Both the position numbers and the translations under genes were made by a program. A stretch of DNA of 64,000 bases from positions 1,888,001 through 1,952,000 of the forward strand of contig CBDDFZ010000001.1 of assembly GCA_965227515.1 (NCBI GenBank). The letters run 5' to 3'. The DNA is from Alphaproteobacteria bacterium (GTDB taxonomy: Bacteria > Pseudomonadota > Alphaproteobacteria > CALKHQ01). The notes beneath the pieces were generated by a model, which worked only from the letters and a program-made list of their open reading frames with translations, had not been told where the DNA came from and searched no databases. This document shows positions 2,244-26,703 of this stretch, one piece after another. Each line of letters starts with the position of its first letter. Position 1 is the stretch's first letter.

Positions 2244-2948
2244 CTACGCCGCCTCGGCCATTTCCGGGTACAGGCGTTCGGTCATGCGGGCGACGTAGTA
2301 GACCAGGTTCGGCATGTCGGAGACCGCCTGCTTCAACGGGCTCTCGAACGGCATCAGCAGCACGCTGGCCAGCATGCCGTAGATGGTGGCGTCCACTGTG
2401 TGCGGCTGCGCCCCGAACAGGAACGCGCGGTCGCCGAGCAGGGTCGACACCGCGTCGGCATCGCGGCGGCCGAATGCGTAGATCTCGGCCGGTGTGTGAC
2501 GCCCGATGCCGTGGCGCCACAGCATCTCGCGCGCGCTGTCGCGATAGCCGTTCGCCACCTCGTCCGGCACGTCGGCGAACACCATGCCGCGCAGCTTCTG
2601 CCAGTTCTCTTCCTCGATCCAGCGGCTGTAGACGATGGCGTGGTAGAACCGCTCCTCCATCATCACCTGCACGGCGTGGGCGGTCGCCCGGTCGACGGCG
2701 GCAAGGTCGTCATCGAGGGCGAGGCCGTGGTGGCGCGCCAGGTGCTCGGTGATCAGCGTGCTGTCGCCGATGACCTGGTCGCCGTCGGTGATGTAGGGCG
2801 CCTTGCCCTTCGGCGCGCCCGCCAGGTCGGTGATCGCTTCGACCTGGTACGGAATGCCGCCGAGGCGCAGGACCGTCTCCAGCTTCAGGCAGAAACCGCT
2901 GGGGCTGATGGTGCCGGGGCGGGCGACGAATTGGTGCAGGGTGAGCAT
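2244..2948 (-). CDS. Glutathione S-transferase family protein (metaxin/FAX-like)
   Basis: SGFCLKLETVLR, PKGKAPYI and IGDSTLI motifs; AGGAG RBS before ATG 2948. Confidence 0.88.
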   Translation of the reverse strand: MLTLHQFVARPGTISPSGFCLKLETVLRLGGIPYQVEAITDLAGAPKGKAPYITDGDQVIGDSTLITEHLARHHGLALDDDLAAVDRATAHAVQVMMEERFYHAIVYSRWIEEENWQKLRGMVFADVPDEVANGYRDSAREMLWRHGIGRHTPAEIYAFGRRDADAVSTLLGDRAFLFGAQPHTVDATIYGMLASVLLMPFESPLKQAVSDMPNLVYYVARMTERLYPEMAEAA

Positions 2949-3091
2949 GGCCGTTCTCCTGTTGGCGTGTGCGTCGGAAGGCACCATGCCAGCCCCCTGC
3001 TGACAGCCTGATGTCAGGAGAACACAGGGTGATCACGAAAAAGACCTGGCGCCATCGAGAACGAGCCTGATTGCTCCAAGACACCCTTGCT

Positions 3092-21139: not shown

Positions 21140-23356
<2,217 letters not shown>

Positions 23357-23487: not shown

Positions 23488-23630
23488 GACAACACGAGGC
23501 CCATAGCAGCTGAAATGTAGATGGGCTAACGGCCCTTGTTTGGTGGCGTGCATGAGTGGTCGTCCCTCAAGATGTCGGTGTCATACACGGAGTCGGGTTT
23601 GCCGCTCCAAGACATCGAGGAGAGACGACC

Positions 23631-24674
23631 ATGAACTACTATGCCGGGATTGACGTTTCTTTGGAATGGTCATCGGTGTGCGTTGTTGACGGCGCGGGCG
23701 GGATTGTCTGCGAGGCTCGTATTGCGAGCACGCCGGCGGGTTTGTTGTTGTGGTTTGGGTCTTTGGGGATTTCGGTTGAGCGGATTGGTCTTGAGGCGGG
23801 GCCGTTGTCGCAATGGCTTGTGCGGGGATGTAGCGAGGGCGGTCTTTCGGTTGAGTTGCTGGAGACGCGTCATGTTGCGCGGGCCCTTTCGACGATGCCG
23901 GTGAAGTCGGACCGCTCGGACGCACGCGGGATTGCTCAGCTGATGCGTGTGGGCTGGTTTCGTCCGGTTCACTGCAAGTCTTTGGCGGCCCAGGAGATGC
24001 GGGCCCTTTTGAAGGGTCGCGACCAGCTCCGCGCGAAGCTGCACGATCTTGAGATGCACCTTCGTGGTCAGCTGCGGAACTTCGGGCTGAAGGTAGGGCA
24101 CACCACCAGGCGCAGCTTTTCGACACGTATTTCGGAGCTTGTGGCGGGGCATCCGGTACTGGAGGCGGTGGCGGGGGCGCTGCTGTCGGCACGCGATGGC
24201 CTGTTGCTATCGTTCACGGCGCTGGACCGGCAGGTCCGAGCGGCATCGCAGGCGGACGATCGCGCTCGCCTGCTGATGACGGTGCCGGGCGTGGGGAGCA
24301 TTGTCGGACTGACCTACTTGTCGGGAGTGGACGACCCCGGGCGGTTTGCCTCGTCGCGCCTGGTGGGGGCGCACTTCGGCCTGACGCCGACCAAGCGCCA
24401 GTCGGGCGAGAGCGAGATGACGGGGCGGATCTCGAAGGTGGGCGATGCGGACGTGCGTGCAGCGCTTTACGAGGCGGCGCACGTAATCCTGACCCGGCCG
24501 ATCAAGGGCGGGTGGTTGAAGAGCTGGGCGATGAAGCTGGCCAGGCGAGCCGGCATGAGGAAGGCGAAGGTCGCGCTGGCGCGCCGGCTGGCCGTGATCA
24601 TGCACCGGATGTGGGTTGACGGCACCGCGTTCAACCATGCCGGACCGGTGCGCCCGGCGATGGCAGCGGCCTAA
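23631..24674 (+). CDS. IS110 family DEDD recombinase/transposase
   Basis: GIDVS, LEAG, KSDRSDA (DEDD); VPGVG; GLTP..RQSG serine motif; KAKVALARRL. Confidence 0.97.
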   Translation: MNYYAGIDVSLEWSSVCVVDGAGGIVCEARIASTPAGLLLWFGSLGISVERIGLEAGPLSQWLVRGCSEGGLSVELLETRHVARALSTMPVKSDRSDARGIAQLMRVGWFRPVHCKSLAAQEMRALLKGRDQLRAKLHDLEMHLRGQLRNFGLKVGHTTRRSFSTRISELVAGHPVLEAVAGALLSARDGLLLSFTALDRQVRAASQADDRARLLMTVPGVGSIVGLTYLSGVDDPGRFASSRLVGAHFGLTPTKRQSGESEMTGRISKVGDADVRAALYEAAHVILTRPIKGGWLKSWAMKLARRAGMRKAKVALARRLAVIMHRMWVDGTAFNHAGPVRPAMAAA

Positions 24675-24749
24675 TGGCAAAGACGACCGCCGCATAGGGA
24701 GAACCAGCACACGAGCTTCGGCGGGCGCAGACACCGGCCCGTCAAGCGC

Positions 24750-24910
24750 CGTCCCGCGCCGGGACGATGGATCAGGTCAGGCCGCCATCCAGGATGTCGC
24801 CTCGCACGAGAGCACGCTTCCGTAGATTGGACCGACCGATCCTCGCATATCCATCTTGGTGGCGGCCGTGCGCCGACCCCGTACAGAAGCATGACCCAGG
24901 CGCCGGGACG
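24750..24910 (+). ncRNA. Predicted bridge/seek RNA of the IS1111-type element
   Basis: 5' hairpin plus two predicted internal loops carrying matches to both target sides and both circle-junction sides; ends approximate. Confidence 0.7.
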
Positions 24911-24949
24911 ACGAAAAAGGGATTGACCAACAATGGCCCGTTACAGAAG

Positions 24950-25031
24950 CCTGGGTGGAGCGTAGCGAAACCCGGGAATTCATCGTCTGGGGCAAGGTTC
25001 CCCGGGTTGCACTTCGTTCCACCCGGGCTAC
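24950..25031. repeat. Inverted pair of GTAG-type REPs; first copy split by the IS (its GTAG is at 23517-23520)
   Basis: [GTAG]CCTGGGTGGAGCGTAGCGAAACCCGGGA versus reverse complement GTAGCCCGGGTGGAACGAAGTGCAACCCGGGGA. Confidence 0.88.
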
Positions 25032-25039
25032 GGGCCAAT

Positions 25040-25162
25040 TGTCATCCTCGGCCGAAGCCCAAGAGCACTTGGGCGGAGCGCCGGGGATCCATGGTTGACC
25101 TCGCGCGATGCCTGGAATGGATCCTCGCCACTCGGTCCTTTGGACCTCGGGCAAGGATGACA
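25040..25162. repeat. Divergent family A-like repeat (TGTCATCCT...AGGATGACA)
   Basis: Terminal inverted repeats, GGATCCAT...ATGGATCC inner stem, nested hairpins. Confidence 0.7.
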
Positions 25163-25185
25163 ATGAGAGGAGGAGAGGGCGCCCC

Positions 25186-25872
25186 CTACAACAACGTCGC
25201 CTGGCGCTGGTGGGGCGCGATGCAGGCGGGCGTGTCGTTGCGCACGTTGTTGACAACGGTGTCGACCTCGTAGGCGGTCAGCGCCTCATCCGGGAACGGG
25301 CCGATCAGCGCGGCGGCGGCGTCGCGGTCGCCATGCAGCCACTGGTCGTGGTCGGCCGGGTCCAGCATCACCGGCATGCGCGGGTGGATGTGGGCGATGG
25401 CGTCGCTGGCGGTGGTGGTGACGATGGTGAACGTCTCGACGGGCTGCGCATCTGGGTCGTCGCGGTCGCGCCAGTGCTCCCACAGCCCGGCGAAGGCGAA
25501 AGGTCCGCCGTCGGCGAGTGTGATGCGATAGGGCTGCTTGCCACCCTCCATCTTGCGCCATTCGTAGAAGCCGTCGGCCACCACCAGGCAGCGCCGGTCC
25601 TTGAACGCGGCGCGGAACATCGGCTTCTCCGCCACCGTCTCGCCGCGCGCGTTGATCGCCTTGTTGCCGATGGCCAGGTCCTTCGCCCAGGCCGGCACCA
25701 GGCCCCAGCGCAGCATGTCGAGCGCGCGGCCACCCTCGCGGTTCAGGCGCACGACCGGCGCGTCCTGGGTCGGCGCCACGTTGTAGCGCGGCTGGAAGTT
25801 CAGCCCGCTGGTCACGTCGAACAGCGTCCGCACCGAGTCCAGCGGCGTGGTGATGGAGTAGCGCCCGCACAT
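25186..25872 (-). CDS. SOS response-associated peptidase (SRAP/YedK/HMCES family)
   Basis: MCGRY start, RYNVAPTQ, WGLVP, INARGET, DGFYEW, IHPRMP. Confidence 0.96.
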   Translation of the reverse strand: MCGRYSITTPLDSVRTLFDVTSGLNFQPRYNVAPTQDAPVVRLNREGGRALDMLRWGLVPAWAKDLAIGNKAINARGETVAEKPMFRAAFKDRRCLVVADGFYEWRKMEGGKQPYRITLADGGPFAFAGLWEHWRDRDDPDAQPVETFTIVTTTASDAIAHIHPRMPVMLDPADHDQWLHGDRDAAAALIGPFPDEALTAYEVDTVVNNVRNDTPACIAPHQRQATLL

Positions 25873-25952
25873 ACCAGCAGTATAGGCAATGGCGGACGCC
25901 GGTTGGCGGCAAACTTCGCTGGCTCTGGCCAGCCGGTCGGTTACCGGCCGTG

Positions 25953-26468
25953 TCACCCGTCCGCGCCGCGCTGGCCGAACCAGCCATGCACGGTGCTGAT
26001 CCAGATGAAGACCATCGGGACGGTCAGCACCAGAATGGCGTTGGTCGTGATGCCATCCTCGATCGGCCACTCCGGATCGTAATTGAGTAGCCAGTCGATC
26101 AACGCGCCATAGAACAGCGGCAGCAGGACGTAGTTCAGCCATCCGGAGCTGCGCTCGAGCACGCGCACCCGTATGGGGGTGTAGACGTCGGCGTCGGAGA
26201 GGTGGGCGTAGTGGCGTCGATAGACCAGGCCCAGATAGACCGGCGCGGCGGCCCAGAACCCGCCAACCAGCCACGGCAGTGCCGAGAAAGGTGCCTCGTA
26301 GGGCGAGCGCTCCGCGGTGCCGATCAGCCCTTGCGCCGCGCCGGTCAGGGCCTGGCCGTTCAGCTCGGCCAGCACCAGGGTTGCGAACAGGGCAAGCGGG
26401 TAGACCACCGTCACCAGCGACAGGTCCAGGTACCACTTGCCCGCAATCGTCTTCGGCCGCCGTGTCAT
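25953..26468 (-). CDS. Hypothetical membrane protein (about 4 TM)
   Basis: Host-like codon usage; hydrophobic segments; start uncertain. Confidence 0.7.
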   Translation of the reverse strand: MTRRPKTIAGKWYLDLSLVTVVYPLALFATLVLAELNGQALTGAAQGLIGTAERSPYEAPFSALPWLVGGFWAAAPVYLGLVYRRHYAHLSDADVYTPIRVRVLERSSGWLNYVLLPLFYGALIDWLLNYDPEWPIEDGITTNAILVLTVPMVFIWISTVHGWFGQRGADG

Positions 26469-26703
26469 CGGTGCATCTTGGTTCATGGAACGGTGCGGAC
26501 ACGCATTATCCGGTCGGTTCCAAAACCAAGCGTAAAGGACGCGCGCGGGCCTGTGGCAAAGGTGCCAGCGGTGCCTTTCGGCCACACAAATCTTTGCGCG
26601 TGGCGGCGCTTCGGGCCATATAGGGGTCGCATTCCGGCGGCGCGGACCAAATATAACTGGTTCGCCTTCCAAGCACGTCCGCCAACCCGAACGGGGCCTC
26701 CGC

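Follow-up and report, generated by a model that had tools for sequence, protein, structure and literature searches.

The bridge/seek RNA systems described in 2024 include those of IS1111-type insertion sequences, for which the published passages give as criteria a GL-P----S(T)G motif, a transposase of 330-350 aa and inverted repeats that are subterminal, measure at least 7-17 bp and leave short terminal extensions outside them, and in whose guides the segment matching the top strand precedes the one matching the bottom strand (Siddiquee 2024, PMC11187229). According to the section dealing with these elements, right-end bridge RNAs are predicted for 93.0% of the IS1111 elements in ISfinder (Durrant 2024, PMC11208160). 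A review table further lists, for the published IS1111 RNAs, a short form of 82-96 nt and a long form of 148-172 nt, and it gives AG*CG as the insertion point of ISPa25.

The window, that is, the whole stretch of 64,000 nucleotides that was analysed, contains an insertion sequence of 1429 bp (23521-24949, including the right-hand AG), and similarity among the 20 full copies of this element begins and ends at these positions. Element boundaries, copy number, guide/flank covariation and structural covariation were all computed here. Judged by the published descriptions, the right end holds a predicted folded RNA with four short segments matching the site of insertion and the ends of the element itself, and it thus adds a well-supported example to the 2024 bridge/seek RNA systems without being a new kind of system.

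As far as the published passages on the seekRNAs of ISEc11, ISPa11, ISKpn4 and ISPst6 go, the present RNA shares with them the location downstream of tnp, which the preliminary description had rightly given as typical of IS1111-type elements, and the guide order; the 74-nt target arm and the whole RNA of ~165 nt fit their short and long sizes, and the transposase (here 347 aa) with GL-P----SG and subterminal inverted repeats are likewise common features, whereas the target sequence differs (Siddiquee 2024, PMC11187229). The predictions presented for ISCARN28, ISAzs32 and ISPa11 agree with ours in the right-end location, in four guides that include the core and in donor bases that lie in a multiloop (Durrant 2024, PMC11208160). 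IS621 (PDB 8wt6) likewise has a DEDD recombinase with a Tnp domain and two guide pairs that each read both strands around a 2-nt core, and it has extra handshake bases beside the 3' guide of each loop, to which handshake-like bases in the present RNA may correspond; it differs by an RNA located upstream of tnp, the opposite guide order, a CT core, a donor loop of the internal-loop type and inverted repeats of no more than 2-3 bp. ISPa11 targets REP sequences, which fits the target string given for it in the review table. Like the present element, ISPpu9 of Pseudomonas putida belongs to the IS110 family, inserts into REP sequences and recombines at AG at both junctions, but the portion of its description considered here reports an upstream bridge RNA, the small RNAs Asr9 and Ssr9, modular circles and no hybrid junction promoter (PMC12288879).

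The element and its junctions comprise the following features:

23514..23518, + strand: left target (LT), AATGT, matching the guide in no more than its last 2 nt; CGT is the 20-copy consensus
23519..23520, + strand: core AG of the left junction, read from the sequence at a fixed offset from the inverted repeat
23521..23526, + strand: left terminal extension ATGGGC, the right donor (RD), 6 nt, from the sequence and the relatives' ends
23527..23544, + strand: left subterminal inverted repeat TAACGGCCCTTGTTTGGT, 14/18 complementary to 24926-24943
23631..24674, + strand: tnp, 347-aa DEDD transposase/recombinase with the GL-P----SG motif (FGLTPTKRQSGES)
24923..24928, + strand: TTGACC, -35-like hexamer of a putative junction promoter, 17 nt upstream of GAAG|AT once the circle forms
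24926..24943, + strand: right subterminal inverted repeat
24944..24949, + strand: right terminal extension CAGA (4 nt, end of the left donor) followed by core AG
24950..24958, + strand: right target (RT) CCTGGGTGG, with which a REP-like palindrome begins

The left junction reads ...AATGT-AG-ATGGGC and the right junction ...TTACAGA-AG-CCTGGGTGG (AG = 24948-49), with 24949 as the last base of the element. The target is therefore AATGT-AG-CCTGGGTGG and the circle junction TTACAGA-AG-ATGGGC, both as reconstructed in the preliminary description. The AG lies at a fixed offset from the inverted repeat in all 20 copies of the genome and in 35/35 relatives with both ends located, the right AG in relatives being partly a matter of how the search pattern for right ends was constructed. 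Insertion proceeds without duplication beyond the shared core and in one orientation (all 20 copies).

The tnp protein matches PF01548 (DEDD_Tnp_IS110, E = 9.6e-13) and PF02371 (Transposase_20, E = 1.1e-19) in Pfam, and it scores 234.7 bits against NCBIfam NF033542 'IS110 family RNA-guided transposase', for which the cut-off is 140. Its C-terminal domain further matches ISCro4 (9t56, E = 5.6e-11) and IS621 (8wt6, E = 1.1e-9). The non-coding stretch measures 110 nt upstream of tnp (23521-23630) as against 275 nt downstream of it (24675-24949). With the domains, the motif and length of the protein, the subterminal repeats, the longer downstream non-coding region and site- and orientation-specific insertion all present, the element is, going by its sequence, an IS1111-type member of the IS110 family.

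Among 30 distinct ends, 19 have a TTGAC exactly 21 nt from the right end and 25 have one 20-22 nt from it, a spacing that is compatible with a putative promoter formed at the junction of the circle. The 5' leader of tnp (23556-23632) can form a long hairpin GGUCGUC...GACGACC that extends up to the AUG and covers the ribosome-binding site GAGGAG, with an MFE of -53.5 kcal/mol (z = -3.69). By eye, a similar leader arrangement with other arm sequences is seen in relatives. This hairpin could possibly act as a translational brake, by analogy with the one described for ISPpu9.

For the right end, the comparative analysis models an RNA of ~165 nt (about 24747-24913, on the tnp strand), predicted to consist of a closing helix P1, a target arm (P2, an internal loop and P3) and a donor hairpin P4, with the guides placed as follows:

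24750..24763, + strand: P1 5' strand, long-range closing helix CGTCCCGCGCCGGG, from duplex energies, covariation and folding
24769..24784, + strand: P2 5' strand, which closes the target-binding loop
24785..24795, + strand: right target guide CCATCCAGG (24785-93), complementary to the top strand of RT, and the two bases after it
24796..24815, + strand: P3 apical stem-loop, 24796-24803 with 24808-24815, loop GCAC
24821..24825, + strand: left target guide CGT with core AG, which has the sequence of the top strand and hence pairs with the bottom strand
24826..24827, + strand: AT, handshake-like, equal to the two bases with which the left end of the element opens (suggestive)
24828..24842, + strand: P2 3' strand
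24851..24856, + strand: right donor guide CCATCT, complementary to AG+ATGG of the left end
24861..24878, + strand: P4 donor apical hairpin, 24861-66 with 24872-78, A24876 bulged
24882..24889, + strand: left donor guide TACAGA with core AG (TACAGAAG), identical to the right tip of the element
24895..24910, + strand: P1 3' strand CCC-A-GGCGC-C-GGGACG, from duplex energies, covariation and folding

Reading of the window places all four guide strings of the preliminary description where it had put them, and with them the AG core and the right-then-left order that it proposed (24785-93 before 24821-25, and 24851-56 before 24882-89). The right-target pairing of this copy includes one G:U, and the next two bases after the guide, AT, face the core; AU opposite AG on the right-target side allows only one base, the T, to pair. 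Beyond the right donor guide, U24850 is able to wobble with the next G. The assignment of CGTAG to the left target and core, also made in the preliminary description, fits the consensus of the 20 copies, whereas the flank of this very copy reads TGTAG and is mismatched at -3.

Structure statistics were taken from an unfitted MAFFT alignment of 27 RNAs, in which P2 is 91.5% paired over 13 pairs with 7 compensatory, P4 100% paired over 5 pairs with 4 compensatory, and the base of P3 81.5% paired over 4 pairs with 3 compensatory; when partners were slid by 1-3 columns as a control, pairing for the whole structure was 36-53%. As P1 was misaligned by MAFFT (72.9% paired), it was instead assessed by duplex energies and by a covariance-model alignment. 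The cognate P1 strands gave -25.7 kcal/mol as compared to -18.2 kcal/mol for non-cognate ones (0/20,000 as extreme), and in the model-fitted alignment, which leans towards the model, P1 is 90.3% paired with compensatory changes in 7 of 8 pairs. Over the whole structure, the same alignment of 55 distinct RNAs holds compensatory changes in 31 of 34 pairs, again with a lean towards the model. Conserved G:U pairs are frequent, which fits the + (tnp) strand as the RNA strand. Since P1 is a long-range helix, the donor guides would lie in the strands of a multiloop.

Several details of the fold drawn in the preliminary description change with this comparison. Its closure of the target loop by GGATC(A)GGTC/GACCGATCC is confirmed, and the stem reaches 14 bp. 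Its 5' hairpin CGTCCC/GGGACG is conserved (94.8% paired) and shows compensatory change in 0 of 5 pairs; on the sequences compared, these bases appear better read as a P1 strand (24750-63 with 24895-910). Both of its apical stems exist, in registers and with loops other than those drawn: the CTCG-CA-CGAG stem would have a 2-nt loop, which is sterically impossible, and the comparative stem pairs 24796-24803 with 24808-24815, while the register of the donor stem that is backed by relatives runs from G24861-C24878 to C24866-G24872. The unconstrained MFE of this copy is -77.3 kcal/mol, with two guides buried in a competing stem (24775-96/24852-74) of the kind that the preliminary description had envisaged as a threat to its reading, and -71.2 kcal/mol is reached when the fold is constrained to the comparative structure. 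The competing stem is not conserved: it is 60.3% paired in relatives, like the slid controls, and absent from the MFE of the 13-copy allele. A search of Rfam 15 at E <= 1 returned no family that matches the RNA; a mir-607 match on the REP palindrome (23.3 bits against a gathering score of 94) was dismissed as spurious.

The host genome (5.5 Mb in 2 contigs, 66.6% G+C) carries 20 full copies of the element with 92-100% identity and one that is internally deleted. The covariance model finds 21 RNA matches in this genome, 20 in the full copies and a partial one in the deleted copy. In the latter (C1:998353-999202), the first ~720 bp are fused to the last 143 bp, and the partial RNA scores 49.9 bits. 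The model matched in 0 of 3 other genomes of the same order (completeness 96-98%), which suggests that the element was gained recently and then expanded to its 20 copies; in a plasmid collection, the best full-length relatives are 67-70% identical.

The left flanks are distinct in all 20 copies, and every site has the form NGT-AG ... AG-CCYGGRTG. Compared with the guide CGT, the left-flank triplet is CGT in 15, TGT in 3 and AGT in 2 of the 20. Two alleles of the RNA exist, namely CCATCCAGG in 7 copies and CCATCCGGG (A24791G) in 13, the latter also carrying C24807T, T24860C and G24868C. The site base that faces 24791 is T in 7/7 copies of the A allele, and for the G allele it is C in 11/13 and T in 2/13, where a G:T wobble is possible; guide allele and site base are associated among the 20 copies (Fisher p = 0.00046). 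We infer from this that the A/G difference at 24791 may represent a natural one-base retargeting that obeys pairing rules, so that two guide alleles one base apart within one genome use different subsets of REP-like sites. The genome holds 202 NNN-AG-CCYGGRTGN sites, of which 23 have AGA on the left, as at occupied right junctions, and the commonest left triplet is CGT (81); the target is therefore a REP-like repeat family.

A protein scan yielded 75 loci of 37-69% identity, mostly alphaproteobacterial, of which the 52 with near full-length matches were tabulated. A recognisable right end was found in 41, and in 35 of these the left inverted repeat was located as the reverse complement of the right one, with the same geometry as in the present element. 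The covariance model matches at E <= 0.001 in 56 of 62 sources (the window, two further copies of the genome and 59 of the 75 loci). For the permutation of guides against flanks and element ends, the longest exact match was scored over 29 distinct RNAs, with L056 and L072 dropped on account of short flanks and identical RNAs collapsed. All four segments covary with the flanks or element ends across these homologues, a check that the preliminary description had proposed for the flanks: the score was 228 as compared to 160.2 +/- 6.8 for RT (0/20,000 as high), 167 as compared to 146.5 +/- 4.8 for LT (1/20,000), 171 as compared to 157.7 +/- 4.2 for RD (26/20,000) and 213 as compared to 175.6 +/- 6.3 for the left donor (LD; 0/20,000).

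When left flanks are anchored at the AG, matches at -1/-2/-3 amount to 0.90/0.80/0.78 for cognate and 0.36/0.24/0.38 for non-cognate pairs (49 sites), and the signal upstream of -3 is weak, so that the left target guide consists of 3 nt plus the core. Over 22 distinct left target guides, 70/110 positions match as compared to 31.1 +/- 5.0 in permutations (0/20,000). The right target is matched at one structural position in 22 of 31 RNA/flank pairs of relatives and in 10 of 11 pairs of the genome itself, and guide and target change together in L024/L025 (AATCCGCCC/GGCGGATT vs AACCCGCCC/GGCGGGTT) as well as in L042/L043. Mismatches between right target guide and flank occur in 5 of the 31 pairs (L026, L029, L036, L051 and L061). 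L027 and L029 are sister copies whose two target guides both differ, and they occupy the same kind of site. L036 carries, at 2589-3020, two full matches to the RNA model that lie 253 nt apart; its right end with the RNA is duplicated in tandem, the second copy following the first ...ACAGAAG.

Variants of the left end are mirrored by the donor guide, as in ATGGTG/CACCATC (L026), ATGCCG/GGCAT (L040/72), ATACAG/GTATC (L059), CTTGGG/ACCCAA (L060) and CATGAG/CATGC (L061/62), and the right tips ACAGAAG, AGAGAAG and AGCGAAG each recur as identical heptamers inside the RNA segment; in L027/L029, with an ATGGCG end, the donor guide is uncompensated. As donor guide and donor end are inherited together in one element, independent events are few, and confidence is lower for the donor guides than for the target guides.

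Could the four matches simply have arisen by chance in a GC-rich non-coding end? In 5000 dinucleotide-preserving shuffles of the 246-nt non-coding end, the 9-mer (G:U allowed) was matched in 496, CGTAG in 691, CCATCT in 140 and TACAGAAG in 9, so that three of the four matches carry little weight by themselves when a single copy is considered. Jointly, all four occurred in 0/5000, and the covariation within and between genomes leads us to reject chance, which we regard as next to incredible; the deciding evidence is this covariation and not the matches of one copy. Scarcely more credible is the idea that the internal copies of the ends function as DNA, either by binding additional recombinase or by serving as alternative ends, and that the region is a structured 3' UTR rather than a guide RNA. 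It draws on the fact that TACAGAAG repeats the right tip directly and CCATCT repeats the left tip in inverted orientation, on the tandem second RNA-bearing right end of L036, and on ISPpu9, for which several alternative circles from repeated end boxes are reported in the passage concerned (PMC12288879). Yet it leaves unexplained why two segments track sequence outside the element and why wobble rules are obeyed, with the A allele at T sites only and the G allele at C and T sites; moreover, in the genome itself all 20 full RNA copies reside in full elements and the one partial copy in the deleted element, and no products of alternative ends were seen.

A different possibility, to which we assign a small but real probability, is that the target arm alone (P2-loop-P3, 24769-24842, 74 nt) is the guide, as a 'short seekRNA', and that the ends are recognised via the subterminal inverted repeats, in which case CCATCT and TACAGAAG would be auxiliary, e.g., in excision or processing, or no guides at all. 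For ISEc11, an 82-nt RNA with target matches only supported transposition better than the 154-nt form did, and in the passages concerned the authors describe the function of the long form as not yet settled (Siddiquee 2024, PMC11187229); since the short RNA suffices there, the donor segments may be dispensable. It would also agree with the weaker covariation of the donor segments (RD 26/20,000), the few independent changes and the uncompensated L027/L029. On the other hand, the donor segments follow the end variants of L026, L040/72, L059, L060 and L061/62 and the ACAGA/AGAGA/AGCGA tips, they are unpaired beside P4 (100% paired, 4/5 compensatory), and P1, which exists in the long form only, covaries strongly; in addition, donor-binding bases in the multiloop are predicted for many IS1111 elements, as far as the published predictions are laid out (Durrant 2024, PMC11208160).

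From our point of view, it is thus highly probable that the right end encodes the guide RNA of an RNA-guided recombinase, with both target and donor guides. The element inserts at the AG of REP-like sites, CGT-AG-CCYGGRTGG. Under this reading, the RNA would, by analogy, probably be transcribed together with tnp from the junction promoter and then processed; a promoter/terminator scan found neither a sigma-70-type promoter nor a + strand terminator around the RNA, and the five records listed as containing the sequence are contigs, with no RNA run among them. The DEDD/Tnp recombinase would bind the RNA, whose target loop would pair with both strands of the site and whose donor strands would pair with the circle junction TTACAGA-AG-ATGGGC and join it to the target, with strand exchange at the AG. 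For transcription, binding and catalysis alike, the proposal follows the described systems: strand exchange of this kind has been shown experimentally for IS621 and, according to the published passages, for ISEc11 (Siddiquee 2024, PMC11187229, for ISEc11).

The present analysis leaves the picture of how IS1111 elements work unchanged and provides a fully annotated natural IS1111-type guide RNA. Two tentative points go a little beyond the described systems, namely the two guide alleles within one genome and the mirror-image reading considered below. The covariation of four segments bears on a question that the published passages leave open, namely the purpose of the long form and of the donor-matching bases (Siddiquee 2024, PMC11187229). 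The recombinase and its RNA might also represent a compact pair for testing.

It could further be speculated that IS1111-type guide RNAs are geometric mirror images of IS110 bridge RNAs, a tentative idea that we rate at somewhat short of even. If the strand opposite to tnp is read, the crossover is CT, which is also the IS621 dinucleotide; each loop then has a long 'left' guide as its 5' guide, with 9 nt in the case of the target and 6 nt in that of the donor, and a short 'right' guide as its 3' guide, followed by handshake-like bases. The AU after CGUAG equals the donor bases beside the core, and the base after UACAGAAG tends to agree with the first base of the target; the signal was 1.0 as compared to 0.46 (n=8 distinct combinations, 114/20,000 permutations) and 0.61 as compared to 0.39 (n=23, 304/20,000), which is no more than suggestive of a handshake in IS1111-type RNAs. 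In the review passages on IS1111 RNAs, we did not find the mirror-image or handshake reading stated. If it were true, the strand exchanged first would be the bottom strand relative to tnp, and the multiloop donor guides would act like the donor loop of IS621.

As for its surroundings, the element is placed between a coding sequence that looks uvrB-like by eye and the REP-like palindrome. The former is the ORF 21140-23356, whose product, again by eye, we take to resemble UvrB. On the right, a REP-like palindrome pair (24950-25027) adjoins the insertion, and a second palindromic repeat with the arms TGTCATCCT ... AGGATGACA was noted by eye at 25041-25163. It is followed by an ORF on the - strand (25186-26502), the C-terminal part of which starts MCGRYS..., presumably the start typical of SOS-response-associated peptidases.
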